This document shows positions 10,410 to 53,185 of a stretch of DNA of 64,000 nucleotides, piece after piece (the stretch's first letter is position 1; each line of letters starts with the position of its first letter). The position numbers and the translations under genes are program-made. Under the pieces are notes generated by a model. That model ran no database searches. It was given only the letters and a program-made list of their open reading frames with translations, and was not told the origin of the DNA. The stretch lies in the NCBI GenBank assembly GCA_001314685.1, contig LJNT01000118.1, positions 2,472 through 66,471 of the forward strand, given 5' to 3'. The stretch comes from Rhodobacteraceae bacterium HLUCCA09. Its GTDB lineage: Bacteria > Pseudomonadota > Alphaproteobacteria > Rhodobacterales > Rhodobacteraceae.

Positions 10410-12614
10410 ATGACCGACACGACGACCGACGCCCTTTCAGACGCGCCTTCGGCCTGCCCGGCCTGCGCGGCCACGCCCATGGCGCGGCGGCAGGCGGTGG
10501 CCGCGGCGGCCGAGGCGCAGGCGGGGCGGGTGATGCTGTCGCTGCCCGGGATCCGCTGCGCAGGCTGCATCACCGGTGTCGAGAAGGCGCTGGCGGCGGA
10601 GCCGGGAGTGCGCTCGGCGCGGGTGAACTTCACGCTCAAGCGCGCGACGGTCGAGACCGACCCTGGCGTGCCCCCCGCGCGCCTGATCGCCGCGCTCGAC
10701 CGGGCGGGCCACACCGCGCACGAACTCGACGCCTCGGCCCTGTCGATGACCGAGACCGACCGGGCGGGCCGCGACCTGCTGATGCGCCTCGCCGTGGCGG
10801 GCTTCGCGGCGATGAACGTGATGCTCCTGTCGGTGGCGGTCTGGTCGGGCGCGGCCGACGCCACGCGCGACCTGTTCCACTGGATCTCGGCGGCCATCGC
10901 CATCCCCGCCGTGATCTTCTCGGGCCGGCCCTTCTACGTCTCGGCCTGGGGGGCGCTGCGCAAGGGGCGGCTCAACATGGACGTGCCGATCACTCTGGCC
11001 ATCGTGCTGGCCGTGGGCACCTCGCTGTGGGAGACGTCGCTTTCGGGCAAGCACGCCTATTTCGACGCGGCGATCGCGCTCGTCTTCTTCCTGCTCGGCG
11101 GCCGCTATCTCGACCACCGCACCCGTGCCGTCGCCCGCTCGGCGGCCGAGGAACTGGCCGCGCTGGAAGTGCCCCGCGCCGCGCGCATCGCGGGCGGCCG
11201 CGAAGAGGAGGTGCGCGTGGGCGACCTGGCCGTGGGCGACCTCGTGCGGGTGAAGCCCGGCGGGCGGATGCCTGTCGACGGCGAGATCGTCGCCGGCACG
11301 TCGGAGCTGGACCGCGGCCTGCTGACCGGCGAGACGCGGCCCGTCTTCGCCGGGCCGGGGCAGGCCGTCAGCGCGGGCGAAGTGAACCTGACGGGCCCGC
11401 TCGATGTGCGGGTGACGGCGGCGGGGCGGGAGAGCTCTCTGCACCGCATGGCCGATCTCGTGGCCGTGGCCGAGAGCGCGAAGAACCGCTATACCTCGCT
11501 GGCCGACCGGGCCGCGGGCCTCTACGCCCCCGGCGTGCACATCCTGTCGGCGCTCGCGGGGATCGGCTGGTGGCTCTACACGGGCGATCTGCGCCTCGCG
11601 CTCAACATCGCCGCCGCAGTTCTCATCATCACTTGCCCCTGCGCGCTGGGCCTTGCCGTGCCGGCCGTCACCACCGCCGCCTCGGGGCGGCTGTTCCGGC
11701 AGGGCCTGCTCATCAAGGACGGCACCGCGCTGGAGCGTCTGGCCGAGGTCGACACCGTGCTCTTCGACAAGACGGGCACGCTGACCCTCGGGGCGCCCGA
11801 GGTGACGGGCCTCGACGCCCATGCGCGCGCCGACCTCGCCCTCGCCCGCGCGCTGGCCGAGGGCTCTGCCCACCCGCTGTCGCGCGCGCTGGCCGAGGCG
11901 GTGGCGGCGCGCGGCATCGCGCCCGCGCGGCTCGAGGGCCACCGCGAGGTGCCGGGCTACGGGGCGGAGGCGACGTGGCAGGGCCGCACCGTCCGCCTAG
12001 GACGCGCCGCCTGGGCGGGCGCCGCGCCCGGGGAGACGACAGCCGCGTGGCTCGCCGTCGAGGGGCGCGCGCCCATGGCCTTCACCTTTGCCGACCGGCT
12101 TCGGCCCGGCGCGCGCGAGGTGGTGGCGGGGCTGAAGGCGGCGGGCCTGCATGTCGCCCTCGTCTCGGGCGATGCGGCGCCCGCTGTCGCCCGGTTCGCC
12201 GGGAGCGTCGGGATCGACGACTGGACGGCAGAAGCCCTGCCCGAGGGCAAGGCCGCCCGTGTCGAGGCGCTGCACTCGGGCGGGGCGAAGGTGCTCTTCG
12301 TCGGCGACGGGCTCAACGACACCGCCGCTCTCGCCGCCGCCCATGCCTCGATCTCGCCGGCCACCGCACTCGACGCGGCGCGCACCGCCTCCGACATCGT
12401 GCTGCTGGGGTCCGACATCGCGCCCGTGGCAGGGGCGGTGACCACCGCGCGCTCCGCCGTGCGCCGCATCCGCGAGAACTTCGCCATCGCCACATGGTAC
12501 AACGTGATCGCCGTGCCCATCGCCATCGCCGGGTTCGCCACGCCGCTCGCCGCGGCGCTGGCCATGTCGGCCTCGTCGATCACCGTGTCGGTCAACGCGC
12601 TGAGGCTGCGCTGA
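10410..12614 (+). CDS. ccoI: CcoI/FixI copper-translocating P1B-type ATPase
   Basis: N-terminal HMA motif GIRCAGC, TM CPC motif ITCPCALG, phosphorylation site FDKTGTLT, hinge GDGLND. Confidence 0.92.
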   Translation: MTDTTTDALSDAPSACPACAATPMARRQAVAAAAEAQAGRVMLSLPGIRCAGCITGVEKALAAEPGVRSARVNFTLKRATVETDPGVPPARLIAALDRAGHTAHELDASALSMTETDRAGRDLLMRLAVAGFAAMNVMLLSVAVWSGAADATRDLFHWISAAIAIPAVIFSGRPFYVSAWGALRKGRLNMDVPITLAIVLAVGTSLWETSLSGKHAYFDAAIALVFFLLGGRYLDHRTRAVARSAAEELAALEVPRAARIAGGREEEVRVGDLAVGDLVRVKPGGRMPVDGEIVAGTSELDRGLLTGETRPVFAGPGQAVSAGEVNLTGPLDVRVTAAGRESSLHRMADLVAVAESAKNRYTSLADRAAGLYAPGVHILSALAGIGWWLYTGDLRLALNIAAAVLIITCPCALGLAVPAVTTAASGRLFRQGLLIKDGTALERLAEVDTVLFDKTGTLTLGAPEVTGLDAHARADLALARALAEGSAHPLSRALAEAVAARGIAPARLEGHREVPGYGAEATWQGRTVRLGRAAWAGAAPGETTAAWLAVEGRAPMAFTFADRLRPGAREVVAGLKAAGLHVALVSGDAAPAVARFAGSVGIDDWTAEALPEGKAARVEALHSGGAKVLFVGDGLNDTAALAAAHASISPATALDAARTASDIVLLGSDIAPVAGAVTTARSAVRRIRENFAIATWYNVIAVPIAIAGFATPLAAALAMSASSITVSVNALRLR

Positions 12615-13210: not shown

Positions 13211-13999
13211 TCAGGCCGCGTCGCGCGCCGCCGCTTCCGATCGCAGGAAGGCCGGGCGGCCGGGCTCCGACAGGTCGGGGGCATGGGCGTAGCCGCCGGC
13301 ATCGAAATCGCGGATCGCGTCGGGGTCGGTCAGCCGCCGCTCGACGATGAAGCGGGCCATCGCGCCCCGCGCCTTCTTGGCGAAGAAGCTGACGATCTTC
13401 GGCCCGCCCGGCTTGTCCTCGAGGAAGACCGGCGTGACGACGGGGATCTCGAGCGCCGAGGTGTCGACCGCGCCGAAATACTCCTGGCTCGCGCAGTTGA
13501 CGAGGGCGCGTGCGCCCGTCGCCTCGGCCTGCTGCTGGAGAGCGCGCCCCAGCCGGTCGCCCCAATACGCGTAGAGATCCTTCCCCTTCCGCGTCTTCAG
13601 CTTCGAGCCCATCTCGAGCCGGTAGGGCTGAATCGCGTCGAGCGGGCGCAGCACGCCGTAGAGCCCCGACAGGATGCGGAGGTGATCCTGCGCCCAGTCG
13701 AGCGCGTCCGCGTCGAGCGATTTCGCTTCGAGCCCGGCATAGGTGTCGCCGGCGAAGGCGCGGGCGGCGGGGCGGGTGCGCTCGTCCGCAGGCTCGGCCT
13801 CGAAGGCGGCGAAGCGATCCTTGTTGAGCCTGGCGAGGTCGGCCGAAATGTCCATCAGCTTCTGAAGGTCGGCTTTCGAGAGGCGCCCCGCGGCCTTCGC
13901 CAGTTTCACCGCATCGTCCTGGAAGGCGGGAGCGGTGGGCATGACTCCCTCCACCTCCGACCAGTCGAGGCGCTTGGCGGGCGAGATGACGACGAGCAT
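13211..13999 (-). CDS. yaaA: YaaA (UPF0246) peroxide stress protein
   Basis: 262 aa. MLVVISPAKRLDW... N-terminus and overall pattern of the YaaA family. Confidence 0.88.
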   Translation of the reverse strand: MLVVISPAKRLDWSEVEGVMPTAPAFQDDAVKLAKAAGRLSKADLQKLMDISADLARLNKDRFAAFEAEPADERTRPAARAFAGDTYAGLEAKSLDADALDWAQDHLRILSGLYGVLRPLDAIQPYRLEMGSKLKTRKGKDLYAYWGDRLGRALQQQAEATGARALVNCASQEYFGAVDTSALEIPVVTPVFLEDKPGGPKIVSFFAKKARGAMARFIVERRLTDPDAIRDFDAGGYAHAPDLSEPGRPAFLRSEAAARDAA

Positions 14000-14237: not shown

Positions 14238-15131
14238 CTACAGGAGCCGGCGTGGATCGGCGAGGTAGCGGGCATATGCAACGAGGAAGCGCGCGGCGTC
14301 AGCCCCGTTGATGACCCGGTGATCGTAGGAGAGAGCGAGCGGGGACATGGGGCGGGGCCGGAAGCTCTCGCCGTCCCAGACCGGCACCTGCTCTGTCCGG
14401 GTGATGCCGAGGATGGCCACCTCGGGCGGATTGACGATGGGAGTGAAGGCCGTGCCGCCGATGCCGCCGAGGTTCGAGATGGTCATCGAGGCGCCCCCCA
14501 TCTCGTCGGGCCGGACCTTGCGCGCCTGTGCCCGGTCCGCGAGATCGGCGATTTCGCCGGCGATCGCCAGCAGGCCCTTGCGGTCGGCGTCGCGGATCAC
14601 CGGCACCATCAGGCCGTGGGCGGTATCGACCGCGATGCCGACATGCACGTAGTCCTTCAGGATCAGCGTCTCGCCATCGGCCGAGAGCGAGGCGTTGAAC
14701 CGCTCGAAGTCCCGCAGGCAGCGCGCGAGCGCCTTGACGTGGAAGGCGAGCCTGGTCAGCCGCACGCCCTTTGCCCGCGCCTCGTCCTTCACCCGCGCGC
14801 GGAACGCCTCGACCTCGGTCAGGTCGGCGCGGTCGTGGTGAGTGACGGCGGGGATCAGCGCCTGCGCCGCGGCGAGGTTCCGCGCCGCGACGCGGGCGAA
14901 GCGGCTGACCGGCTCCTCGCGGACGGGGCCGAAGGCGGCGTGGTCGACGTCCCAATAGCTCGTGTCGGCGGTGGCGGGCGTGGCCTGCCCGGCAGAGCCG
15001 GTGCCTGTCACGTCTTCCCGGCCGATGGTCTCGCGGCCGAGATCGCGGGCGAGCGCGGTCAGGTCGACGCCGCGCTCGGCGGCGAGCTTGCGCACGGAGG
15101 GGCTGGCGATCACGTCTGCCATGCTCACCAC
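14238..15131 (-). CDS. 2-oxoacid/acetoin dehydrogenase E2 core without lipoyl domain (subunit-binding domain + acyltransferase catalytic domain)
   Basis: 297 aa. PSBD block [16 protein letters not shown]. Catalytic domain with [10 protein letters not shown] and [16 protein letters not shown]. No lipoyl-lysine (xDKA) motif. Confidence 0.85.
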
Positions 15132-16582
15132 TCCGCCGAAATGTACTGGGCTTCCATGAACTCGTGCATCCCCTCGTGGCCGCCCTCGCGCCCCAGCCCC
15201 GACTGCTTGGTGCCGCCGAAGGGCGCGGCCGGGTCTGAGACGAGTCCGCGGTTCAGCCCCACCATGCCGTAGTCGAGCCTTTCCGACACCTGCAGGCCGC
15301 GCCGGAAGTCGCCGGAGAAGACGTAGGCGACAAGGCCGTACTCGGTGTCGTTGGCGCGGCGGACCACGTCGCCCTCGTCGGTGAAGGTCTGGATCGCGGC
15401 GACCGGGCCGAAGATCTCGTCATGCACGCAGTCGGCATTCTCCGGCACGTCGGTCAGCACCGTGGGCGGGTAGTAGAAGCCGCGCCCCCCCGGCAACTCA
15501 CCCCCGATCCGCAGCGTCGCGCCCTTCGCTACCGCGTCCTGCACGAAAGCATGCACCTTGTCGCGCGTGTCGGCGTTGACGAGCGGGCCGACATCGACGC
15601 CCTCCTCCAGCCCGTTGCCCACCTTCAGCGCGCCCATCGCCTCGGTCATCTTCCGCGCGAAGTCTTCCGCCACCGCCTCGTGCACGTAGAAGCGGTTGGC
15701 GGCGGTGCAGGCCTCGCCCAGGTTGCGCATCTTGGCCAGCATCGCGCCCTTCACCGCCGCGTCGATGTCGGCGTCGTCGAAGACGATCAGCGGCGCGTTG
15801 CCGCCAAGTTCCATCGCGGGCTTCAGCACCTGGTCGGCGGCGCCGCGCAGGAGCTTGCGGCCCACGGGCGTCGAGCCGGTGAACGAGATCACGCGCACCC
15901 GCGCATCGTGCATCAGGTGGTCGACCAGCTTGCCCGTCTGCTGCGAGGGCAGAACGTTGACGAGCCCCTTCGGCAGGCCCGCCTCCTCCAGAAGCGGCAT
16001 CAGGGCGAGCATGGTCAGAGGCGTCTCGGAGGCGGGCTTGATGATGCAGGGGCAGCCGGCGGCGAGCGCGGGCGCCAGCTTTCGGGTGCCCATCGCGGCG
16101 GGGTAGTTCCACGGCGTTACCAGCACGGCGATGCCGGCGGGCTTGTGGTGGACGAGGATGCGGGCGCCGGTCGAGGGGCCGCGCGTCAAGAGCCCGTCAG
16201 CGCGCACGGCCTCTTCCGAGAACCAGCGGAAGAACTCGGCGGCATAGGCAGCCTCGCCCATGGCGTCGCCCCGCGCCTTGCCGTTCTCCAGCGTGATGAG
16301 GCGGGCGAAATCCTCCAACCGCTCGGTCATCAGCTCCCACGCTTTCCGCAGCACTTCGGCCCGCTCGCGCGGCTTCCGCCCCGCCCAGTCGGCAAAGGCG
16401 GCCTGCGCGGCGTCGAGCGCGGCGTCGGCATCTTCCAGCGTGGCCGAGGCGACGGAGGCCAGCACGCTCTCGTCGGCGGGGTTGATCACGTCGAAGCGCG
16501 CGCCGTCCGACCCGGTCCGCCAGCCGCCGTCGATGTAGAGGTCCGTCGGCAGCGTCTCGAAGGTTGCGTCGAGCTTGGTCAT
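15125..16582 (-). CDS. NAD(P)-dependent aldehyde dehydrogenase, succinate-semialdehyde dehydrogenase-like
   Basis: 485 aa from internal start [15 protein letters not shown], catalytic Glu in MELGGNAP, catalytic Cys in GEACTAANR. The upstream part of the 811-aa track ORF is read-through. Confidence 0.88.
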
Positions 16583-16596
16583 GGGTGCCTCCCGTA

Positions 16597-17952
16597 TCAG
16601 AGCAGGTGCCGCAGCGGCTCTTGCAGCCGGTCGGCGAGGCCCGAAAGCAGCGCCAGCGCCGCCTCCTCGGGCAGCGTGGCGTCGTGGGCGAGGTGCAGCG
16701 CCAGCGTGTCGCCGCGGCGGGTGATCGTCACCACCGGAACGGGCGCGGCGGCCGGTTTGATCCCTGTGAGCGCGGTGCCCGTCAGGTCGCGCAGGATCAG
16801 CTCGGGTCGGGCATCGCTTTCCGGCAGATCGGCCGAGACCGGCGCACGGTCGGGGTCGTTCCACGCGGTCGTGGTGCCGAGGGTGCCGGCGGCGACGGTG
16901 AGCGGGCCCGCGTGTTCGCGCGCCGCCCTCAGCGCCCCCGCCGCGAACGCGGCAAGGAGGCGCGGCGAAGAGGGCGCGGTGCCCTCTTCCTGCAGCCACG
17001 CGCGGAACGCGTCGAAGGCGGCGGCATCCACCTCTGCCGAGACGACGCCAACTGCGCCGGCGCCGGCCGCGGCTTGCGCCGGCGCGGCCTTGGGCAGGGC
17101 GCGCAGCGTCTCGAGGTCGGCCACGTGGAAGGGCGGCGCGTGGCCCGCCGCGACGAGATCGGCGAGGTCGAGCCCCTCCTCCGCCGCCAGCCTGCGCGCC
17201 CTGGGTGAGGCAAGGACGCGTCCGGCCGGCTTCGGCCCGGCGGCCGGGCGCGGTGTCGGCGGGGCCGTCCTGGCGGGTACGGGCGGCGGTGCCGGCTCGG
17301 CCCTTGCCGCCGGCGCGGCCTTCGGCGCCGGCGCCTCGGCCTGTGGCGCTGCCGCCATCGCCCGCCGGATCGGCGCCTCGGGCGCCTCGGCAGAGATCAC
17401 CGCGATGACCTGCCCCACCGGCACGTCGTCGCCCGCCTCGGCAAGGATCGCGGCGAGATAGCCCGCGCGGTCGGCCTCGACCTCCATCGTGGCCTTGTCG
17501 GTCTCGACCTCGAGCAGCGCGTCTCCCTCGGCCACGGCCTCGCCGGCCTCCTTGTGCCATGCCACCACGACGCCCGAATCCTGTGCCATGCCGAGCGCCG
17601 GCATGATCACCTCGTGCCCCTCGGGCACCGCCCCGGGCCCGCCCTGCGCCGGGCTCCCGGCGGGTGCCGGCCGCTCCGCGCCGGTCTCCACCGGCGCCGC
17701 TCCCGCGCGCTCCGCCGTCTCGGAGATGATCGCCACGATCTGCCCCACCGGCACGCTGTCGCCGGCCCCGGCCCGCACGTCGGCGAGATAGCCGTCATGG
17801 GCGGCCTCGACTTCCATCGTGGCCTTGTCGGTCTCCACCTCCATCAGCGCGTCGCCGGTCTTCACCGGGTCGCCCGGGTTCTTCAGCCACGAGACGATGA
17901 CGCCCGAATCCTGCGCCATGCCGAGGGCCGGCATGATCACCTCATGCGGCAT
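16597..17952 (-). CDS. Double-lipoyl scaffold protein: 2 lipoyl domains + subunit-binding domain + short degenerate E2-like C-terminal domain
   Basis: 451 aa. Two copies of EVIMPALGMAQDSGV...EVETDKATMEVEA. Ala/Pro linkers. PSBD LASPRARRLAAEEGLDL. C-terminal ~150 aa ends LAHDATLPEEAALALLSGL, aligned to DHRxxDG...FL. Confidence 0.8.
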   Translation of the reverse strand: MPHEVIMPALGMAQDSGVIVSWLKNPGDPVKTGDALMEVETDKATMEVEAAHDGYLADVRAGAGDSVPVGQIVAIISETAERAGAAPVETGAERPAPAGSPAQGGPGAVPEGHEVIMPALGMAQDSGVVVAWHKEAGEAVAEGDALLEVETDKATMEVEADRAGYLAAILAEAGDDVPVGQVIAVISAEAPEAPIRRAMAAAPQAEAPAPKAAPAARAEPAPPPVPARTAPPTPRPAAGPKPAGRVLASPRARRLAAEEGLDLADLVAAGHAPPFHVADLETLRALPKAAPAQAAAGAGAVGVVSAEVDAAAFDAFRAWLQEEGTAPSSPRLLAAFAAGALRAAREHAGPLTVAAGTLGTTTAWNDPDRAPVSADLPESDARPELILRDLTGTALTGIKPAAAPVPVVTITRRGDTLALHLAHDATLPEEAALALLSGLADRLQEPLRHLL

Positions 17953-18940
17953 CGGCCACCTCGCCCCTGACCGCGCGGCGCGCGGCCTTTGCCACCGCCT
18001 CGGGTGTCGGCACGGTCAGGTCCTCGAGCGCGGGGCTGAACGGCACGGGCACGTCCATCGCGCCCAGCCGCTGCACCGGGTAGTCGAGATGGTAGAACGC
18101 CTTCTCCGAGATGCGGCTGGCGATCTCGCCGGTGACGCCGAAATTGCGGTGCCCTTCGTCGATCACGATGGCGCGGGAGGTCTTCCTGACGCTCTCCACG
18201 ACGGTCGCTTCGTCGAAGGGCACCAGCGTGCGCGGGTCGATCACCTCGGCCGAGATGCCCTCGGCGGAAAGCGCCTCTGCCGCCTTCGCCGCCACCTGCA
18301 CCATCGACGACGTGGCGACGAGGGTAATGTCGCGCCCCTCGCGCAGGACGTTCGCCGCGCCGAAGGGGATCAGGTACTCCTCCTCCGGCACTGGCGCCTT
18401 GTCCTGGTACATCAGCTTGTCCTCGAAGATGACGACGGGGTTGTCGTCGCGGATCGCCGTCTTCATCAGCCCCTTCGCCTCGTAGGCCGACGACGGCATC
18501 GCCACCTTCAGCCCGGGGATGTGCGCCACCAGCGCGTGCAGCGACTGCGAGTGCTGCGCCGCCGAGCGCCGCGTCGCGCCCAGATTGGTGCGCAGCACCA
18601 TCGGCACGCTCAGCTTGCCTCCCGACATGTAGTGCTGCTTGGCCGCCTGGTTGCACAGCTGATCCATCACCAGATACAGGAAATCGCCGAACATCAGATC
18701 GACGATGGGCCGCGTGCCCGTCATCGCCGCGCCCACCGCCATGCCGACGAAGCCGGGCTCGGAGATCGGCGTGTCGATCACCCGCTCCGGCCCGAACTCG
18801 TCCACCAGACCGCTCAGCACCTTGAACGGCGTGCCCGCCTCGGCCACGTCCTCCCCGATCAGGAAGACCGACGGATCGCGCCGCATCTCCTCGGCGATGG
18901 CCTCGTTCACGGCCTTCGACAGCGTGATCTCGCGGGTCAT
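17942..18940 (-). CDS. acoB: TPP-dependent dehydrogenase E1 beta subunit (AcoB-like)
   Basis: 332 aa from MTREITLSKAVNEAIAEEMRRDPSVFLIGEDV. Transketolase-like pyrimidine-binding and C-terminal domains. 4-nt overlap with the E1 alpha gene. Confidence 0.88.
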   Translation of the reverse strand: MTREITLSKAVNEAIAEEMRRDPSVFLIGEDVAEAGTPFKVLSGLVDEFGPERVIDTPISEPGFVGMAVGAAMTGTRPIVDLMFGDFLYLVMDQLCNQAAKQHYMSGGKLSVPMVLRTNLGATRRSAAQHSQSLHALVAHIPGLKVAMPSSAYEAKGLMKTAIRDDNPVVIFEDKLMYQDKAPVPEEEYLIPFGAANVLREGRDITLVATSSMVQVAAKAAEALSAEGISAEVIDPRTLVPFDEATVVESVRKTSRAIVIDEGHRNFGVTGEIASRISEKAFYHLDYPVQRLGAMDVPVPFSPALEDLTVPTPEAVAKAARRAVRGEVADAA

Positions 18941-20025
18941 GCCCCGGCTCCCTTCGCGTATCCGTCGATGTAGGGCAGGGCGTGGTCGACCCCTGCGAAG
19001 ACGTGCATGTCCACCTCGCCCGCCTCGGGGTAGCTGGCGTTCAGAGCGTAGGCGACGGCCGCCTCGGCCTCCGCCCTGATCTCGTCGCCGATCGCCACGA
19101 GGTCGTCCGCCGACAGGATCCCCTCCGCCTCCAGCCACTTGCCGAAATTCACGATCGGGTCGCGCCGCTCCTTCCACTCCGCTTCCTCGTCCTTCGAGCG
19201 GTAGTAGTCGCGGTTGATGTCGCCCACGTGGTGGCCGTGGTAGCGGTAGGTATCGAGCTCCACGAAGAACGGCCCTTCGCCGTGGCGCGCACGCTCAACC
19301 AGTCGCTGCGCCAGCTCGTTCACCGCCAGCACCTCCTGCCCGTCGACCCTGTGCGCCTCGATCCCGAACGCCTCAGCGCGCGCGGTCAGCGAGCCGGCGG
19401 CGATCTCGTCGGTCCGGGTATACTCGGAATAGCCATTGTTCTCGCAGGCATAGATGACCGGCAGCTTCCACAGAGCGGCCATGTTCATCACCTCGTACCA
19501 CAGCCCCTGCGCCGTCGCCCCGTCGCCGAAGAAGCACACGGTGACGAAATCGCTCCCCTGCAGCTTCGCGCTCAGCGCCGCCCCCGTGGCGATCCCCATC
19601 GACCCGCCCACGATGGCGTTGGCGCCGAGGTTGCCGTGGGCCTGGTCGGCGATGTGCATCGAGCCGCCCTTGCCCCGGCAATAGCCCTCCTCGCGGCCGA
19701 GCAGCTCGCAGAACATCTGCCGGAACTCGGCCCCCTTCGCCACGCAATGCCCGTGGCCGCGATGGGTCGAGGTGATGCGGTCCTCGTCGGTCAGCGCCTC
19801 GCAGATGCCGACGGCCACCGCCTCCTGCCCCGAATACATGTGCGTCAGCCCCGGCATCTTCGCCGAGAGATAGAGCTGGTTCGCCTGGTCCTCGAAGGCG
19901 CGGATCTTCACCATCTGCCGGTACATCCGCAGATAGTCCTCCGTGTTCGCCTTCGCGGCCTTCGCGGCGCCCCCCTCCTTGCCGGAGCGGCTCCCGCCCG
20001 TCTTCTTCGCAGCCTGCGCGGCCAT
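18937..20025 (-). CDS. acoA: TPP-dependent dehydrogenase E1 alpha subunit (AcoA-like)
   Basis: 362 aa from MAAQAAKK. Blocks HMYSGQEAVAVG, STHRGHGHCVAKG, TPP motif GDGATAQG...ENNGY. Confidence 0.88.
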   Translation of the reverse strand: MAAQAAKKTGGSRSGKEGGAAKAAKANTEDYLRMYRQMVKIRAFEDQANQLYLSAKMPGLTHMYSGQEAVAVGICEALTDEDRITSTHRGHGHCVAKGAEFRQMFCELLGREEGYCRGKGGSMHIADQAHGNLGANAIVGGSMGIATGAALSAKLQGSDFVTVCFFGDGATAQGLWYEVMNMAALWKLPVIYACENNGYSEYTRTDEIAAGSLTARAEAFGIEAHRVDGQEVLAVNELAQRLVERARHGEGPFFVELDTYRYHGHHVGDINRDYYRSKDEEAEWKERRDPIVNFGKWLEAEGILSADDLVAIGDEIRAEAEAAVAYALNASYPEAGEVDMHVFAGVDHALPYIDGYAKGAGA

Positions 20026-20060
20026 CGCGCCCTCCCTCGGGAGCGGCGCGCGCCGCCCCC

Positions 20061-20118
20061 GTCTTCTTCTTGCGTCAAATATCCCCGCCGGAGGCATCGC
20101 CCCCGGCACGGGGGCGAT
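20061..20118 (-). repeat. Dispersed repeat copy B (GTCTTCTTCTTGCGTCAAATATCCCC) plus adjacent perfect hairpin ATCGCCCCCG-GCA-CGGGGGCGAT
   Basis: Read in the 92-bp spacer between the M24 gene stop (20118) and the acoA start (20025). Nearly identical core and layout at 55002-55052. Confidence 0.75.
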
Positions 20119-21416
20119 CAGTAGCGGTTGGCGATCGGCAACTCCTCGGCCGGGAACAGCGAGATCACCTCGCAGCCCGTATCCGTCACCACGACCTCCT
20201 CCTCGATCCGGGCGGCCGAATAGCCGTCCTTGGCCGGGCAGTAGGTCTCCAGCGCGAAGACCATGCCGGTCTCGATCTCCATCGGGTTGTCGAGCGACAC
20301 CGCGCGGGAGATGATCGGACGCTCGTGCAGCGCCAGCCCCAGGCCGTGGCCGAACTGAAGGCCGAAGGCCGACAATTCGTCGGGGAAGCCGAGGGATTCG
20401 GCCGTGGGCCACAGCTTGGCCACCTTGTCTGTCGTCACGCCCGGCTTGATCGCCGCGATGGCGTCGTCGAGCCACTCGCGCGCGCGGACGTAGGCATCGT
20501 TCTGCTCCGGCGTCGCGCGGCCGATGTTGAACGTGCGGTAGTAGCACGTCCGGTAGCCCTGGTAGGATTGCAGGATGTCGAAGAACGCCTGGTCGCCGGG
20601 GCGGAAGTAGCGGTCGGTGAAGTTGTGCGGGTGCGGGTTGCAGCGCTCGCCCGAGATGGCGTTGATGGCCTCGACGTCGTCGGACCCCATCTCGTAGAGC
20701 ATCTTGTTCGACAGCGCGACGATGTCGTTTTCGCGGATGCCCGGCTTCAGCTCCTCGTAGATCATGTGGTAGACGCCGTCGACCATGCTGGCCGCCTGCG
20801 TCAGCAGCTGGATCTCGTCGACGTTCTTGATCTCGCGGGCCGACAGCATGATCTGCTGGCCGTCGACCACCTTGATGCCGGCCTCCTGCAGGGCGAAGAA
20901 CATCGCCGTCTCGGCGTAGTCGACGCCCACGGGCATGTCCGCCACGCCCGCCTCGCGCAGCAGCGCCGCGATTTCCTCGGCATAGTGCTTCATCAGCCCG
21001 AAGGAGGGCGGGATCGTGCCGCGCATGCCGACGACGCCGGCGCGGCAATGCTCGGGGTCGAGCCAGTCGGCGTATTTCCTGTGGTGGACGGCGGCCGAGC
21101 CGAAATCCCACACGTAAGGCTCGGCGTCGCCGGCGAGCAGCGCGAAGCGGCACATCTTGTCGCGCTCCCACTCGCCGATCTTGGTGCCGCTGACGTAGCG
21201 GATGTTGTTGACGTCGAAGAGCAGGAGCGCGCCGCACTCCGAGCCCTTGAGCGCCTGCTTGGCGCGGCTGAGGCGGTAGCGGCGCAGGCGGTCGTGGTCC
21301 ACCCGGCGCTCGAAATCGACCGACGTGTGGCCCCAGGCGGGCAGCCGCCCTTCCCAGCGCCAGTTGGGGTCGAGGTCGGCGGGCTGCAGGATGCGGGGGT
21401 TCAGGGCCTGGTTCAT
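20118..21416 (-). CDS. M24-family metallohydrolase with creatinase-type N-domain (creatinase/DddP/DoeA-like); substrate unknown
   Basis: 432 aa from MNQALNPRIL. Pita-bread metal-ligand pattern (FFDILQ...D, HGLGLALHE, ALETY, RIEEEVVVT). Overall architecture as in DddP/creatinase. Confidence 0.75.
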   Translation of the reverse strand: MNQALNPRILQPADLDPNWRWEGRLPAWGHTSVDFERRVDHDRLRRYRLSRAKQALKGSECGALLLFDVNNIRYVSGTKIGEWERDKMCRFALLAGDAEPYVWDFGSAAVHHRKYADWLDPEHCRAGVVGMRGTIPPSFGLMKHYAEEIAALLREAGVADMPVGVDYAETAMFFALQEAGIKVVDGQQIMLSAREIKNVDEIQLLTQAASMVDGVYHMIYEELKPGIRENDIVALSNKMLYEMGSDDVEAINAISGERCNPHPHNFTDRYFRPGDQAFFDILQSYQGYRTCYYRTFNIGRATPEQNDAYVRAREWLDDAIAAIKPGVTTDKVAKLWPTAESLGFPDELSAFGLQFGHGLGLALHERPIISRAVSLDNPMEIETGMVFALETYCPAKDGYSAARIEEEVVVTDTGCEVISLFPAEELPIANRY

Positions 21417-21434
21417 GGGGTCGTCCTCCCGTGA

Positions 21435-21517
21435 GGCGTAGGGTGCATGCTCGTCACGCACCTTGGGTTGGTCGGTCGGCGGCGCGGACGGTGCGTGCAG
21501 AGCACGCACCCTACGCC
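21435..21517 (-). other. Structured intergenic element: two near-duplicate hairpins enclosed by a 7-bp outer stem
   Basis: Minus-strand RNA: GGCGUAG-[GGUGCGUGC UCU GCACGCACC]-27 nt-[GGUGCGUG ACGAG CAUGCACC]-CUACGCC. The RBS GGGAGGA and ATG 21416 follow. Confidence 0.6.
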
Positions 21518-21534
21518 CGCTACGCCCGCGGTCG

Positions 21535-22341
21535 TCACTGGATGCACCAGCCGCCGTCGATGTGGATCATCTGGCCCGTCATGTAGTCGCTGTCGGGCGA
21601 GGCGAGGAACGCGGCCGTGCCCTTCACGTCGTCGGGGTAGGAGACGCGCTTGATCTGCAGCGCGTCGCGCACGATGTCCTCGTAGGCCTGCCCCTCGCGC
21701 TCCTTGAAGCCGATGTCGATCAGGTCCTTGTCGAGCTGTTCCCAGAGCGGCGTGACCACGACGCCCGGCGCGTAGCCGTTGACCGTGATGCCGTGCTCGG
21801 ACAGCGCCACGGCGCCGCAATGGGTCAGCGCGAGGCAGCCGTATTTCGAGGTGCAGTAGACCGTCACGTCGACCAGCGGCTTGCGGCTGGCGATGGAACC
21901 GACGTTGATGATCTTGTAGGGATAGTCGCGTTTGCCCTGGGCGATCATCTGGCGTGCGGTCTCCTGCATTCCGAGCCACATCGCCTTTGTGTTGACGTTC
22001 ATGATCATGTCCCAGTTGTCTTCGTCGATATCCATGAAGAACCGGGGCTTGTTCAGGCCGGCGTTGAACAGTCCGACGTTGATCTCGCCGAAGGCGTCGA
22101 CGGTGGCGGCGACGGCGGCGGCGTTGTCCTCTCGCCTGGTGACGTCCATCTTCACGGCGATGGCGCGGCCGTTTCCCTTTGCGTTGATCGTCTCGGCCAC
22201 GGCGTGCGCCTCGGCCTCGTCGATGTCGCCGATGCACACGTTCGCGCCCTGCTCGGCAAAGTGCTCGGCGTTCTTGGCGCCCATGCCCTTGGCGGCGCCG
22301 GTGATCAGGATGTTCTTGCCCTTCAGGCGGTTGGGGTCCAT
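21535..22341 (-). CDS. SDR-family oxidoreductase, acetoin reductase/2,3-butanediol dehydrogenase (BudC)-like
   Basis: 268 aa. ITGAAKGMG, catalytic S...YCTSK, C-terminal FLASPDSDYMTGQMIHIDGG. Confidence 0.85.
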   Translation of the reverse strand: MDPNRLKGKNILITGAAKGMGAKNAEHFAEQGANVCIGDIDEAEAHAVAETINAKGNGRAIAVKMDVTRREDNAAAVAATVDAFGEINVGLFNAGLNKPRFFMDIDEDNWDMIMNVNTKAMWLGMQETARQMIAQGKRDYPYKIINVGSIASRKPLVDVTVYCTSKYGCLALTHCGAVALSEHGITVNGYAPGVVVTPLWEQLDKDLIDIGFKEREGQAYEDIVRDALQIKRVSYPDDVKGTAAFLASPDSDYMTGQMIHIDGGWCIQ

Positions 22342-22367
22342 GTCGCTCCTCCCTTGATGCCGCGTTC

Positions 22368-24122
22368 TCAGAACAGCGCGTCGGCCCGGGACTGGGCCTT
22401 GCGCAGCGTGTCGCGCGGGGAGTGCAGGCCCCGCAGCATGTCGTGGAATTCCTCCCCGCAGATGCGGATGATCTCGGTGATCTGCGGCACCGGCGGCCGC
22501 GGCCAGAATTGCAGCTCGTCGCGCCACGACATCGCCTCGACCGCCTCGAAGATCGGCGAGATGCGGCGCACCTCGGGGTCGGCGCCGACCGAGTAGCGCG
22601 GGTTGGTGCGGCTGCCGTTCTGCACGAAGAGCTTCTGCGCCTCGGGCGAGGTGAAGACGGCGAGCGCCTCTGCCGCCGCCGCGCGCCGCTCGGGCGCGAG
22701 ATTGGCGGGCAGGCCGAGCGCGTAGCCACCGACCGGCGCGACCGGCGTTCCGCCCGGCCCCGGGGGATGCGGCAGGAAGCCGGTCTGCCCGCAGGCGGGT
22801 GAGGCGGGATCGAGCTCGAAATACGGCGCGAGCAGGGTATAGCCGTAGGCCATGGCGACCGAGCCCGCCGCGTAGGGGCGGATACGCTCGTACCACGACA
22901 TCGACAGGATGTCGGGCGGCGAGTAGGCGAGCAGCTCGAGCAGGAACTCGGCCGCGGCGAGGCCGGCGTCGGTGTCGATCGTCGGGCGGTGGTCGCCGCT
23001 CGCCAGGTCGGCGCAGTCGTAGCCGCCGGCGATGGCCGGCAGGTCGAGCACGGGCTGGCCGAAATCGGCGAGCGTCATCAGCACGGTATGGCCCAGCGCG
23101 GTGCCGCGGGCGGCGTTCCACGCGATTCCGTGAACGCCGCGCACCGGGTCGTGCAGGGCGCGGGCGGCGGCGAGCAGCGCGTCGGTTGTGGCGGGCGGCT
23201 CGAGCCCCGCCTGGGCGAACATGTCCTTGCGGTAGAACAGCAGCTCGGGCGTGGTCTGCGCGGGCACGCCGTAGGGGTGCCCGCCCCAGTGGGTGGCCTG
23301 CCAGCCCGCGGTGTGGAAATCGGCCGGGTCGAGGCGGGCGACGTCGATCACCTCGTCGAGCGGCAGGAGCACGCCCTTCTCCACGAACTCGCCCAGCCAC
23401 GGCAGGTCGACCGCGACGATGTCGTAGCGGCTGGCGGTGCGTTCGGCGTTGCGCAGCGCCTCGTCGCGCAGCCGGTCGATGGAAAAGGCGCGCTGGTGGA
23501 TCGACAGGCCGATGGACTGCTCGAACTGGCGCTTGAGGTTGTCCATGACCATGAAGGTCGGGTCGCCATGGGCGAGCACGCGCAGGCCGCCCGCCAGCCG
23601 CAGCGGATCGGGGCGCACCTGCAGCGGCGGCAGCGACTGGGCCGTGCGGTAGGAGCCACCGTAATAGTAGTCTTCGGTGGCGGGGTCGTTCTTGGGGGTG
23701 CCGAGGCGCGTGTCGGTCAGGCGGCGGACACGGTCGGCCAGTTGGGTCCAGGCGTCGAGCAGGTCGGGGCTGGGGTGCAGCGAGAAGGACTTGCCCGAGG
23801 GCGTGCGGGGGCGTTGCTCGATCAGGCCGGCATCGACCATGGCGCGCAGTCGGCGGGTCGCGGTGGCGTAGGGCACGCGGCTGGCGCCGATCAGAGATGT
23901 AGGCGTGACGGTGCGCCCCTCGAAATGGTTGCGCAAAAGGGTGAGGGCCATGCGCAGATGCGCGTCGGTCTGGATCAGGTCGATGGTGCCCTCGACCTCT
24001 TCGCAGAGCTCGTCGAGGAAGCCGATCAGGCGCAGGGCGTCGCCCGGGGCCACAGACGGCGCGATGGGCGACGCGACGGGGGTCGCGGCGGCGCGTGCGT
24101 CTGAAAGGCCCATCTTGTTCAT
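22368..24122 (-). CDS. Fusion regulator: N-terminal winged-helix DNA-binding domain + family-1 extracellular-solute-binding-protein fold, no signal peptide
   Basis: wHTH block VTPTSLIGASRVPYATATRRLRAMVDAGLIEQRP. The remaining ~430 aa has an SBP_bac_1-like pattern (RYDIVAVDLPWLGEF..., YGVPAQTTPELLFYRKDMF). Start uncertain: ATG 24122, 24113 or 24200. Confidence 0.7.
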   Translation of the reverse strand: MNKMGLSDARAAATPVASPIAPSVAPGDALRLIGFLDELCEEVEGTIDLIQTDAHLRMALTLLRNHFEGRTVTPTSLIGASRVPYATATRRLRAMVDAGLIEQRPRTPSGKSFSLHPSPDLLDAWTQLADRVRRLTDTRLGTPKNDPATEDYYYGGSYRTAQSLPPLQVRPDPLRLAGGLRVLAHGDPTFMVMDNLKRQFEQSIGLSIHQRAFSIDRLRDEALRNAERTASRYDIVAVDLPWLGEFVEKGVLLPLDEVIDVARLDPADFHTAGWQATHWGGHPYGVPAQTTPELLFYRKDMFAQAGLEPPATTDALLAAARALHDPVRGVHGIAWNAARGTALGHTVLMTLADFGQPVLDLPAIAGGYDCADLASGDHRPTIDTDAGLAAAEFLLELLAYSPPDILSMSWYERIRPYAAGSVAMAYGYTLLAPYFELDPASPACGQTGFLPHPPGPGGTPVAPVGGYALGLPANLAPERRAAAAEALAVFTSPEAQKLFVQNGSRTNPRYSVGADPEVRRISPIFEAVEAMSWRDELQFWPRPPVPQITEIIRICGEEFHDMLRGLHSPRDTLRKAQSRADALF

Positions 24123-24243
24123 TCCAAAGGTCGTCCTGTGCGGTCGGGTCGCGGAGGCACCCGACGATTCGCTCGTTCTGGATGTTTTCGGTCGGGTCAT
24201 TCGCGGCGCCTCGCAGCATGTTCATTTCGGTCACCGGGTGATA

Positions 24244-24418: not shown

Positions 24419-25372
24419 ATGAACATCCGCAGCATGCTCGCCGCCACCACCGCCGCCGGCATCGCGCTGGCCGGCGCCGCGACCGCGCAGGAGTACACGA
24501 TCGGCATCACGCAGAACAACGTGGGCGTCGACAGCTATCAGACGACCTACGAAAAGGCGTTCATCGCGGCGGCCGAGGCCAACCCCGACGTGCAGGCCGT
24601 GGTACTCGACGCCGGCGGCGACGTCGCCCGCCAGATCGCGCAGATGGAAGACCTGATCCAGCAAGAGGTCGACGCGATCATCATCTGGCCGACGAACGGC
24701 GAGGCGGTGATCCCCGTGGTGCGGCAGGCCTCGCAGGCAGACATCCCGGTGATCGTGACCAATTCGAACATAGCCGAGCAGGGCTTCGACTTCATCGCGT
24801 CGTTCTCCGGGCCCGACAACATCACGCAGGGCTCCCGCTCGGCCGAGATCATGTGCGACAAGTTCAAGGAGCTTGGCATCGAGGACGAGGCGCAGATCGT
24901 GCAGATCTCGGGCCAGCCGGGCTACACCACCGCCATCGAGCGGGCCCAGGGCTTCGAGGAGCGCCTGCCGGAGGTCTGCCCGAATGTCACGCTGGTCGAG
25001 ACCCAGCCGGGCGACTGGAACCGCGAGAAGTCGCAGCAGGTGATGGAAGCCTTCCTCGTCAAGTACGACGACATCGACGGCGTCTATTCGGGCGACGACA
25101 ACATGGGCGTGGGCGCGTTGAACGCCGCCAAGGCCGCGGGCCGCGACGGCATCATCTTCGTCGGCGCGACCAACTTCGCCGTGGGCTACGAGGCGATGGC
25201 GGCGGGCGATTACTGGGGCTCGATCTACCAGTCGCCGGTCGACGATGCCGAGGCCGCGCTCCAGACCGCGATCGACGTGCTGAACGACGAGGAAGTTCCG
25301 TTCCTCAACTACTTCGACACGCCGAAGATCACTCAGGACAACATGGACGAGTTCGAAAAGCCCGTCTTCTGA
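24419..25372 (+). CDS. Sugar/polyol ABC transporter periplasmic binding protein (RbsB-like, type I PBP)
   Basis: 317 aa. Signal peptide MNIRSMLAATTAAGIALAGAATAQE. Type I PBP pattern (IGITQNN..., DAIIIWPTNG, IPVIVTNS). Confidence 0.88.
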   Translation: MNIRSMLAATTAAGIALAGAATAQEYTIGITQNNVGVDSYQTTYEKAFIAAAEANPDVQAVVLDAGGDVARQIAQMEDLIQQEVDAIIIWPTNGEAVIPVVRQASQADIPVIVTNSNIAEQGFDFIASFSGPDNITQGSRSAEIMCDKFKELGIEDEAQIVQISGQPGYTTAIERAQGFEERLPEVCPNVTLVETQPGDWNREKSQQVMEAFLVKYDDIDGVYSGDDNMGVGALNAAKAAGRDGIIFVGATNFAVGYEAMAAGDYWGSIYQSPVDDAEAALQTAIDVLNDEEVPFLNYFDTPKITQDNMDEFEKPVF

Positions 25373-25386
25373 GCGAACCTCCCCTG

Positions 25387-25421
25387 GCGGCTGCGGGGCG
25401 CGCGCCCCGCAGCCGCTCTTT
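25387..25421 (+). terminator. Perfect 30-nt GC palindrome + TCTTT: intra-operon terminator/attenuator after the binding-protein gene
   Basis: GCGGCTGCGGGGCGCGCGCCCCGCAGCCGC at 25387-25416, followed by TCTTT. Sits 15 nt after stop 25372. Confidence 0.6.
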
Positions 25422-25448
25422 ACCCACAGGGTCCGCAGGGAGGACGGC

Positions 25449-26261
25449 ATGGGACGTGTATCGGGGCGTGTCTGCCTCGTGACCGGCGCGGCGCGCGGCA
25501 TCGGGCGGGCCATCGGCGAGGCGCTGCTCGAAGAGGGTGCGCTGGTCTGTTTCGCCGATCTCGACGGTGCGGGCGTGGCCGAAGTGGCCGAGGCCGCCAA
25601 CCGCCGTCTCAACGGCAACGCGGGCAACGCCATGGCGGCGGCGCTCGACGTGCGCGACCGAGCCTCGGTGCGAACCGCCATCGGGCAGGTCGTGGAGCGG
25701 TTCGGCCGGCTTGACGTTAAGTTCAACAATGCCGGCGTCAACCGGCCGATGAACTTCATGGACGTGACCGAGGACAACTGGAATTTCATCATGGGTGTGA
25801 ATGGTCTGGGCTGCCTGATCGGCATGCAGGAGGCCGCGCGCCAGATGATCGCGCAGGGGCGTGGCGAGGGCGGCGTGGCGGGCAAGATCGTCAACACCGC
25901 GTCGATCGCGTCCCGGCAGGGCTTCGACAACGTGGCGCCTTACTGCGCGTCGAAGTGGGCGGTCGTCTCGCTCACGCAGTCGGGTGCACGCGATCTCGCC
26001 CGCCATGGTATCGTGGTGACGGGGTTCGCCCCCGGCGTGGTGGCCACCGAGATGTGGGAGCAGGTCGACCGCGACCTGATGGAGATCGGCGCCGCCGAGC
26101 GCCCCGGCCAGGCGATGGAGGAGTTCGCCGCGGACATCCTGAAGGGGCGGGTGGCCACGCCAGACGACATCACGGGCACGACAACGTTCCTGGCCAGCAG
26201 GGACAGCGACTACATGACGGGGCAGATCGTGATGATCGACGGGGGCATGACCCTCGTCTGA
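25449..26261 (+). CDS. SDR-family oxidoreductase, BudC/sorbitol dehydrogenase-like (paralog of 21535-22341)
   Basis: 270 aa. VTGAARGIG, S...YCASK, FLASRDSDYMTGQIVMIDGG. Confidence 0.85.
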   Translation: MGRVSGRVCLVTGAARGIGRAIGEALLEEGALVCFADLDGAGVAEVAEAANRRLNGNAGNAMAAALDVRDRASVRTAIGQVVERFGRLDVKFNNAGVNRPMNFMDVTEDNWNFIMGVNGLGCLIGMQEAARQMIAQGRGEGGVAGKIVNTASIASRQGFDNVAPYCASKWAVVSLTQSGARDLARHGIVVTGFAPGVVATEMWEQVDRDLMEIGAAERPGQAMEEFAADILKGRVATPDDITGTTTFLASRDSDYMTGQIVMIDGGMTLV

Positions 26262-26309
26262 CGCGCCTGCCCGCCATTCGCCCAAGACGGGCACGGGAGG
26301 AGTTGAGCC

Positions 26310-27320: not shown

Positions 27321-27332
27321 GGAGGACGGACC

Positions 27333-29848: not shown

Positions 29849-29861
29849 GGGGCGCCGATTG

Positions 29862-53102: not shown

Positions 53103-53185
53103 CTGGGCATCCTTCTCGCGTTGCGTTTCCCGCCCGCCGTTATAGGGTCGTGCGCCGGTCGGGGCCAGAGATGAGGGAGCGGGGC

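Follow-up and report, generated by a model that had tools for sequence, protein, structure and literature searches.

A 64,000-nucleotide stretch of Rhodobacteraceae bacterium HLUCCA09 (contig LJNT01000118.1, positions 2,472 to 66,471; hereafter the window, numbered from its first letter) encodes, on its minus strand, what is probably a lipoamide-dependent complex of the pyruvate dehydrogenase (PDH) or acetoin dehydrogenase type, in which the E2 function is split over two co-evolved paralogues; we put the probability of this reading at about 0.6. One paralogue, here named LIPX, carries two lipoyl domains along with a peripheral subunit-binding domain (PSBD) and a C-terminal domain with a predicted, degenerate E2 core fold. 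The other, here named E2c, carries a PSBD and an intact acyltransferase domain. Within the pair, lipoate can be carried by LIPX alone and the acyltransferase residues are found in E2c alone. Canonical E2 proteins combine the swinging arm, the docking site and the catalytic core on one chain; to our knowledge, the only well-known departures from this plan are the eukaryotic E3-binding protein (E3BP) and the actinobacterial OdhA/AceF hybrid.

Genes were assigned with Pfam and NCBIfam profiles on the open reading frames (ORFs) of the window, the GC content of which is high (about 0.66-0.75). An earlier note on this DNA, made from its letters alone, had described the order E1alpha, E1beta, a 451-aa protein, an aldehyde dehydrogenase (ALDH) and a 297-aa protein, and Pfam recovered all five genes in that order and place:

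18937-20025, minus strand: E1alpha, the thiamine pyrophosphate (TPP)-binding subunit, 362 aa, PF00676 at 255.6 bits, start placed at MAAQAAKK
17942-18940, minus strand: E1beta, 332 aa, PF02779 and PF02780
16597-17952, minus strand: LIPX, 451 aa, lipoyl-bearing and putatively non-catalytic E2 paralogue with two lipoyl domains, a PSBD and a degenerate core domain
17719-17952, minus strand: LIPX lipoyl domain 1, residues 1-78, PF00364, lipoyl-lysine K43 (codon 17824-17826), mean pairwise identity 0.75
17389-17616, minus strand: LIPX lipoyl domain 2, residues 113-188, PF00364 (best stretch 113-186), lipoyl-lysine K153 (codon 17494-17496), mean pairwise identity 0.69
17101-17223, minus strand: LIPX PSBD, residues 244-284, PF02817, mean pairwise identity 0.75
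16600-17043, minus strand: LIPX C-domain, residues ~304-451, predicted reduced E2 catalytic-core (CAT-like) fold by AlphaFold2 (AF2), Foldseek and hhalign, tail PLRHLL
15125-16582, minus strand: ALDH, 485 aa, succinate-semialdehyde dehydrogenase (SSADH)-like, full-length PF00171 at 522 bits, between the LIPX and E2c genes
14238-15131, minus strand: E2c, 297 aa from a GTG, lipoyl-free PSBD and acyltransferase domain
15003-15113, minus strand: E2c PSBD, residues 7-43, PF02817, AF2 helices 11-20, 24-31 and 38-41 at a predicted local distance difference test (pLDDT) score of ~90
14241-14948, minus strand: E2c catalytic domain, residues 62-297, catalytic His271 (codon 14319-14321)

E1alpha matched human PDHA1 with E=1.7e-62 and the PDH_E1_alph_y model TIGR03182 with 342 bits, under its cutoff of 394, and E1beta exceeded the cutoff of NF006667 (388 bits, cutoff 321). 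ALDH scored 533 bits on the SSADH model TIGR01780, under its cutoff of 646. No curated NCBIfam cutoff was reached by LIPX or E2c, and in the source records they carry generic names ('biotin/lipoyl-containing protein' and '2-oxo acid dehydrogenase subunit E2', respectively). The gene junctions are operon-like: the E1alpha stop and the E1beta start overlap as ATGA, the E1beta stop and the LIPX start overlap by 11 nt, the LIPX stop is followed after 14 nt, containing a GGGAGG ribosome-binding site, by the ALDH start, and the ALDH stop lies 2 nt from the probable ATG of E2c at 15122, which would give a protein of 294 aa, as in its orthologues. Altogether, positions 14238-24200 (minus strand) form a single tightly packed operon, from a gene whose product contains a solute-binding-protein (SBP) domain through to E2c.

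LIPX contains two PF00364 lipoyl domains (132.7 bits) and one PF02817 domain (residues 246-270, 26.5 bits), and E2c contains PF02817 (E3_binding; residues 7-43, 24.5 bits, cutoff 23.7) and PF00198 (2-oxoacid_dh; residues 70-297, 256 bits). These three profiles, which the earlier note had proposed running on both ORFs, were distributed as it had claimed, with the lipoyl domains on one polypeptide, the active acyltransferase domain on the other and a PSBD kept by each. Its description of the 297-aa protein as having an intact catalytic motif and no lipoyl-lysine motif also stood. A six-frame scan found exactly two lipoyl-lysine motifs in the window (ETDKA at 17821-17835 and at 17491-17505), both in LIPX, and one DHRxxNG motif, at 14304-14324, in E2c.

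E2c aligned with the cubic-core domain of Azotobacter vinelandii E2p (1eaa; phmmer E=3.2e-73) over residues 62-297, with the motifs TISNLG and DHRVING intact, and residues D270, H271, R272, N275 and G276 were invariant in 31 orthologues. It covered positions 283-586 of the 587 in the AceF-type model TIGR01348, with 348 bits (under the cutoff of 552) as compared with 160 bits on TIGR01349. The earlier note had allowed for a lipoyl domain in this protein; none was detected by PF00364, by the lipoyl-lysine motif scan or as a beta-barrel ahead of the PSBD in the AF2 model, and there is no room for a hidden one, since the PSBD already begins at residue 7 and only 2 nt lie between the ALDH stop and the probable start codon. 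The AF2 model of E2c, built on a shallow family alignment (72-88% identity; pLDDT 68 overall), was used solely for this N-terminal region.

The lipoyl and PSBD part of LIPX scored better with the mitochondrial/alphaproteobacterial model TIGR01349 (175 bits) than with TIGR01348 (110 bits). In the AF2 model, the LIPX PSBD formed helices at positions 8-17, 22-26 and 37-43 (pLDDT 82-93); its nearest PDB match, a weak one, was the subunit-binding domain of human E2p (E=0.004). The nearest PDB matches of the E2c PSBD, also weak, were the PSBD of Geobacillus stearothermophilus E2p (3duf_I, 1w4e and 1w85_I). When LIPX and E2c were compared by BLASTP, the PSBDs alone aligned (62% over 21 aa, E=5e-4). 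We also observed that both PSBDs weakly matched the N-terminus of the PDB entry 7qjm_A, 'alpha/beta-hydrolase (202)', where a PSBD-like segment lies ahead of the hydrolase; this layout recalls AcoC-type E2s, in which a hydrolase fold takes the place of the CAT-like core.

The last ~150-170 aa of LIPX had no Pfam, NCBIfam or PDB sequence (phmmer) match, and PF00198 was absent from them. The length of this C-domain is conserved in homologues, as are the motif LRDL, with Arg388 and Asp389 invariant, and the C-terminal PLRHLL. An AF2 model of the LIPX PSBD and C-domain, based on a 27-sequence alignment, reached a mean pLDDT of 90, and the top 48 Foldseek matches of the C-domain in the PDB were all E2 catalytic-core domains or E3BP, at a probability of 1.00. 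They included E2p of Escherichia coli and A. vinelandii, E2o, E2b and human E2p, as well as human E3BP (6h60, TMq 0.60). By hhalign, LIPX and the E2c family were collinear from the PSBD to the C-terminus (80% probability, E=1.4e-5), with the LIPX C-domain lacking the N-terminal arm, part of the beta-sheet and one helix of E2c, and with the CoA-side helices deleted. This alignment placed LRDLTG on the catalytic-Ser motif TISNLGG, with Arg388-Asp389 on Ser-Asn, so that the catalytic Ser corresponds to the invariant Arg388, and 'LHLAHD-ATL' on 'LSYDHRVIN', where the catalytic His falls opposite a gap. The 'AHD' His of the window protein is confined to a Rhodovulum/Rhodosalinus subgroup and is not conserved in the LIPX family. 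With Arg in place of the catalytic Ser and no counterpart of the catalytic His in this alignment, the C-domain is predicted to be unable to catalyse acyl transfer. As modelled, LIPX is an E2 paralogue that is complete but catalytically dead, and its core domain belongs to a small, distinct and un-annotated family.

A hidden Markov model (HMM) of the C-domain retrieved 338 clusters, of bacterial-type proteins, among 1.84 billion representatives. The domain was always C-terminal in them, and its host proteins had either one lipoyl domain (~325-360 aa) or two (~430-470 aa); no canonical E2 or E3BP was reached in this search. The one-lipoyl form was at least as common as the two-lipoyl form among cluster representatives.

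LIPX evolves much faster than any other protein of the operon: across loci, the median identity to the window protein was 48% for LIPX, compared with 70% for E2c, 79% for E1alpha, 83% for E1beta and 85% for the M24 enzyme encoded by the first gene of the conserved block. Pairwise identity within LIPX was 0.32 in the linkers and 0.41 in the C-domain, with few gaps, and rose to 0.71 in the last 12 residues, which hold 7 of the 18 C-domain positions conserved at >=90%. The contact between the trimers of a canonical E2 core is made by the C-terminal tail. The E2c C-terminus, DPRRLL, resembles the LIPX tail PLRHLL. The tail Arg was present in 65 of the 70 loci with E2c and in none of the six loci without it (Fisher p=2e-6, phylogeny ignored), where the tails read PLHHLL, PLMHLL, PLEHLV, PLKHVL or PLMYLL. 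Taken together, the conservation of the tail, its likeness to that of E2c and the co-occurrence of its Arg with E2c point to the C-domain as a putative assembly module that would contact E2c.

The spread of the arrangement, which the earlier note had proposed surveying, was determined in one genome per GTDB species (582 relatives), in which the best 80 loci were analysed by tblastn with the window proteins; counts over 83 loci include the hand correction of four loci where the ALDH start overlaps the LIPX end. LIPX, ALDH and E2c followed one another, within the block M24-E1alpha-E1beta-LIPX-ALDH-E2c, in ~68 of the 83 loci, from Rhodobacterales, Hyphomicrobiales and some Gammaproteobacteria. 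LIPX was directly followed by E2c in four loci (two Marinobacter, L080 and L082), E2c was not found in the flank in six (L066 and L075-L079), and the remaining loci were cut by a contig end or fragmented. The full order of SBP-domain protein, short-chain dehydrogenase/reductase (SDR), M24 enzyme, E1alpha, E1beta, LIPX, ALDH and E2c, together with a divergent transporter, was found in Hoeflea sp. IMCC20628, Thioclava sp. F34-6 and Stappia sp. ES.058, the genomes of which are complete. Gammaproteobacterial carriers were Marinobacter, Granulosicoccus, Salinisphaera, Natronospirillum and a Chromatiales metagenome-assembled genome (MAG). In the Marinobacter variant (L020:5503-12226 and L025), M24 and ALDH are absent and LIPX and E2c are still adjacent; a 419-aa ORF without a Pfam match (L020:6596-7855) precedes E1alpha, with a Cpn60-family gene upstream.

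LIPX homologues number in the thousands; the best 120 cover 98-100% of the query, are 420-470 aa long and come from Rhodobacterales and Hyphomicrobiales, the nearest named one being that of Rhodovulum sp. 12E13 (86% identity). The 120 best-matching E2c homologues have lengths of 291-311 aa, at 72-90% identity, the orthologues being 291-303 aa long. Three loci (L058, L064 and L083), the only ones of the 83 with a damaged-looking cluster, had E1beta, ALDH or LIPX truncated or in two or three tblastn pieces, which probably reflects frameshifts in MAGs or assemblies, or decaying copies.

These data modify the label 'Split E2' used in the earlier note. The split is real and conserved, but it is not that of one E2 cut in two, as the C-domain of LIPX is itself, by its predicted fold, a degenerate E2 core. 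LIPX and E2c appear, from their scores with the family models, to descend from separate E2 lineages that underwent complementary losses rather than to be halves of one gene, and the arrangement is therefore closer to mitochondrial E2 plus E3BP than to gene fission. Likewise, an ALDH gene does separate the two in most loci, but it is not essential to their pairing, given the four loci in which they are adjacent.

No E3 redox-disulfide motif was found in the window by motif scan, in agreement with the earlier note, which had reported no E3 gene. When the E3 linked to the cluster in locus L005 was used as a tblastn query, a single partial match (32%) was obtained at 53444-54040; it was rejected as an E3, since it belongs to the following protein, the only E3-like sequence in the window:

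53150-54379, plus strand: ferredoxin-reductase-type flavoprotein with Pyr_redox_2 and Reductase_C domains, not an E3

In three of the 83 loci, an E3 gene with the motif GGVCLNVGCIPSK directly follows E2c, and no other locus has an E3 in the cluster. The system would therefore be lipoamide- and E3-dependent. Paired with their organisms in the order in which these are listed, the three genes are:

L005:13601-15055: Aliiruegeria lutimaris
L016:4171-5589: a Roseovarius MAG
L055:13787-15346: Salinisphaera hydrothermalis

The remaining genes of the operon and its surroundings are as follows:

20118-21416, minus strand: M24/creatinase-fold protein, 432 aa if started at MNQALNPR, within an ORF that reaches 21509, PF00557 and PF01321
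21535-22341, minus strand: SDR, 268 aa, like acetoin reductase/2,3-butanediol dehydrogenase and sorbitol dehydrogenase (TIGR02415, 213 bits; PRK07067, 205 bits; both under cutoff)
22368-24200, minus strand: 610-aa protein at the head of the operon, with an N-terminal ~200 aa without a Pfam match and a C-terminal SBP_bac_1/SBP_bac_8 domain
24419-29848, plus strand: divergent CUT2-type ABC transporter block, with a Peripla_BP_4 binding protein (24419-25372), permeases (26310-27320 and 27333-28337) and an ATPase (within 28109-29848)
25449-26261, plus strand: second SDR, inside the transporter block
29826-30731, plus strand: gene resembling 3-hydroxyisobutyrate dehydrogenase (HIBDH) and tartronate-semialdehyde reductase, after the ABC transporter
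30728-31441, plus strand: ThuA-like gene, where the divergent block ends
13211-13999, minus strand: YaaA peroxide-stress-family protein, downstream of the operon and unrelated to the E2 split
10410-12614, plus strand: heavy-metal P-type ATPase (HMA, E1-E2_ATPase and Hydrolase domains), likewise downstream and unrelated

The M24 protein is the most conserved enzyme of the cluster, its median identity of 85% having been determined over 70 loci from different orders. DddP is a dimethylsulfoniopropionate (DMSP) lyase. It was the best curated match of the M24 protein, at 109 bits against a cutoff of 600, and the DddP structures 4s01, 4rzy and 4b28 matched over the full length with E~1e-19; prolidases were also among the distant relatives. 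The PDB relatives of the operon's SDR were 3wye, 4e6p and 1geg. The 610-aa protein is kept at the operon head in 55 loci (median identity 66%) and is a candidate one-component regulator, which would sense the substrate with its SBP fold; its N-terminus appeared winged-helix-like by eye. The transporter adjoins the operon in most loci, and its binding protein is distantly related to the ribose/YtfQ-type sugar-binding proteins 2ioy and 6hb0 and to the CUT2 proteins 5hko, 4rs3 and 4rsm (E~1e-28 to 1e-32). HIBDH-like genes were also observed near the cluster in L040, L048, L079 and L080, at ~30% identity.

From this context, the operon logic appears to parallel acetoin catabolism, with its acetoin-reductase-like SDR and in-operon ALDH. 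We give an even chance to a pathway in which a polyol or diol would be imported and oxidised to an alpha-hydroxyketone, which E1 would cleave in the manner of acetoin into acyl-lipoyl and an aldehyde, the latter being oxidised by the ALDH of the operon. Since E2c is close to E2p, the acyl group is likely to be a small one, for instance acetyl. AI-2/DPD, 1-deoxy-ketoses, erythrulose and acetoin itself were considered as candidate substrates.

The acetoin dehydrogenase complex yields acetyl-CoA and acetaldehyde, and a butanediol dehydrogenase is encoded in aco clusters (PMC10107126). Like AcoA/AcoB/AcoC/AcoL, the present cluster combines a heteromeric, TPP-dependent E1alpha/beta with a lipoyl-bearing E2 and a dehydrogenase of the butanediol/acetoin type, and in both systems the E3 gene often lies outside the cluster. 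AcoC, however, is a single polypeptide; on its model NF011457, LIPX reached 162 bits against a cutoff of 307 and aligned through its lipoyl part alone (positions 4-111 of 372). In contrast to the acetoin system, the operon has no acoX or acoR. It also adds the M24 enzyme, the SSADH-like ALDH and a sugar-type ABC transporter, and the substrate is therefore probably not acetoin itself.

E3BP is an E2-derived, non-catalytic subunit with lipoyl domain and PSBD (PMC10156792, PMC7494870). LIPX resembles mitochondrial E3BP in its apparent derivation from E2, its lipoyl domains, its own PSBD and an E2-fold C-domain without catalytic residues, and its C-domain of ~150-165 aa is close in size to the core-binding domain of the fungal protein (residues 261-426 in Neurospora crassa; PMC10156792). 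With lipoyl domains, a PSBD and what the model presents as a non-catalytic E2-fold domain, LIPX is thus, by description, an E3-binding protein. It differs in being bacterial, in having two lipoyl domains (one in many relatives) and in belonging to a catabolic operon rather than to central metabolism. Furthermore, eukaryotic E2 keeps its own lipoyl domains, whereas E2c has none and every arm is borne by the putatively dead subunit. No sequence-level relation between the LIPX C-domain and E3BP was found with the C-domain HMM or by PDB sequence search; LIPX may well have an origin independent of E3BP, the resemblance being one of fold and architecture alone.

In corynebacteria, the E2o domain of OdhA has no lipoyl domains and uses those of AceF (PMC10415282, PMC7568260). 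E2c would similarly be a lipoyl-free E2-type catalytic domain dependent on the lipoyl domains of another polypeptide. In the OdhA (KGD)/AceF system, however, the lipoyl-free domain is fused to E1o and the donor is a fully active E2p, whereas E2c is a separate, PSBD-bearing protein with a donor that is predicted to be catalytically dead. When compared with the AceF-type E2p of A. vinelandii and E. coli, E2c aligns from the PSBD to the C-terminus and shares DHRVING and TISNLG, but it misses all three N-terminal lipoyl domains, remains under the equivalog cutoff and is paired with an alpha/beta-type E1 instead of the homodimeric AceE-type. Full-text literature searches returned no description of an E3BP-like protein in bacteria, of a naturally lipoyl-free E2 or of a cluster of M24, E1 and ALDH genes in Rhodobacterales, a silence that is no proof of absence.

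In the scheme that we infer, the E1alpha/beta heterotetramer would reductively acylate the two lipoyl domains of LIPX, acting as swinging arms, and the LIPX C-domain would most likely serve as the assembly module anchoring these arms to the complex. E2c, presumably forming a trimer-based core, would then move the acyl group, probably acetyl, in trans from LIPX-bound dihydrolipoamide to CoA, and the lipoyl groups would be re-oxidised by an E3 encoded elsewhere in the genome. The two PSBDs of E2/E3BP complexes allow the recruitment of E1 and E3 to be separated (PMC10156792); because LIPX and E2c have two different PSBDs, this recruitment could be divided between them in the same way. For the physical form of the complex, we tentatively propose a hetero-oligomeric core, in which the dead, miniaturised LIPX would plug via its conserved tail into an arm-less AceF-type core. 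LIPX would bear all the arms and add a second, divergent PSBD, letting different subunits recruit E1 and E3, or perhaps even enzymes of the pathway like ALDH or M24. This would represent an independently evolved bacterial solution of the E3BP kind.

Several points weigh against a two-subunit E2 as proposed here. Six loci, all with the one-lipoyl form of LIPX, carry E1alpha, E1beta and LIPX with no E2c in the flank; ALDH follows LIPX in four of them, and in Roseobacter insulae (L066) the operon ends at ALDH, facing a convergent ABC-2 transporter. LIPX can therefore persist without a cluster-encoded E2c, and the partnership may not be obligatory: in these species LIPX may use the housekeeping E2, or E2c may be located elsewhere in the genome. 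The PSBD calls in LIPX and E2c are barely over the Pfam threshold, and the suggested partner preferences lean on the weak PDB matches. Since the hhalign probability is just 80% and the C-domain profile never reaches canonical E2s by HMMER, the statements on Ser and His loss hang on a weak alignment and a fold match. The pathway is placed by gene context, and the reaction may be a plain decarboxylation of a pyruvate-like 2-oxoacid instead of an acetoin-type cleavage, because E1alpha/beta is close to genuine PDH E1.

Among the alternatives, the one that survives best, though we consider it somewhat unlikely, is that LIPX is a soluble, free-standing carrier resembling the H-protein, tethered by its PSBD to E1 (or E3), with a C-domain that merely self-trimerises and with E2c as a separate homomeric core contacted transiently. 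A fast-evolving C-domain (0.41) that has lost the N-terminal arm and several canonical helices would fit a simple oligomerisation plug, LIPX does occur without E2c in the six loci, and cases of lipoyl domains serving in trans are known (PMC10415282). What argues against a free carrier, without being decisive, is that the most conserved part of the C-domain is its E2c-like tail, that the tail Arg tracks the presence of E2c and that the linkage of the two genes is tight across cluster variants.

It is improbable that LIPX instead docks on, or hands its acyl group to, the housekeeping PDH E2, or is the E3-binding accessory of the latter, with E2c using another lipoyl donor or acyl group. The loci without E2c are in its favour, as is the lipoyl/PSBD part of LIPX, which is of the same alphaproteobacterial/mitochondrial type as we take the host's own PDH E2 to be. 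On the other hand, E2c lies in the same operon in ~72 of the 76 informative loci, and LIPX and E2c are adjacent even in Gammaproteobacteria with an otherwise different cluster. Moreover, the only lipoyl motifs of the window are the two in LIPX, leaving E2c no further donor close by.

A new catalytic or ligand-binding role of the LIPX C-domain at Arg388-Asp389, for example acyl transfer to a non-CoA acceptor, also has little to recommend it. These two residues are invariant and map onto the catalytic Ser-Asn, and loci without E2c would still be functional if the domain had such a role. However, the domain has lost its CoA-side helices, its sequence is poorly conserved overall and an intact E2c is kept in most clusters; in addition, we know of no precedent for a new catalytic function of an E2-like C-domain.

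Finally, a recent gene fission, frameshift or assembly artefact of one canonical E2 gene, the last two of which the earlier note had raised, would have in its favour the unusual look of the locus alone and the fragmented genes of L058, L064 and L083 (apparently sequencing or MAG errors). It is refuted by conservation and synteny: the two genes are separated by one for a complete 485-aa ALDH, each protein has its own PSBD and its own E2-fold domain, LIPX and E2c score best with different E2 lineages and have hundreds of full-length homologues each, and the synteny extends over about 70 species, complete genomes included.

The two-subunit E2 considered here would thus be a widespread bacterial system, found in at least ~70 species from two alphaproteobacterial orders and several Gammaproteobacteria (338 clusters for the C-domain), in which all the lipoyl arms belong to a dead E2 paralogue and the active E2 is arm-less. 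If this is true, a division of labour of the E2/E3BP type can arise outside eukaryotes, and the LIPX C-domain defines a domain family for which Pfam and NCBIfam have no model. The pair would also provide a natural, genetically separable system in which to address the number of arms per core, the access of arms in trans and the specificity of PSBDs; should the hetero-oligomeric form hold, it would amount to a natural, fully 'modularised' 2-oxoacid/acetoin dehydrogenase complex. For marine bacteria of the Roseobacter group, the operon would flag an uncharacterised, highly conserved catabolic pathway with a DddP-like M24 enzyme.

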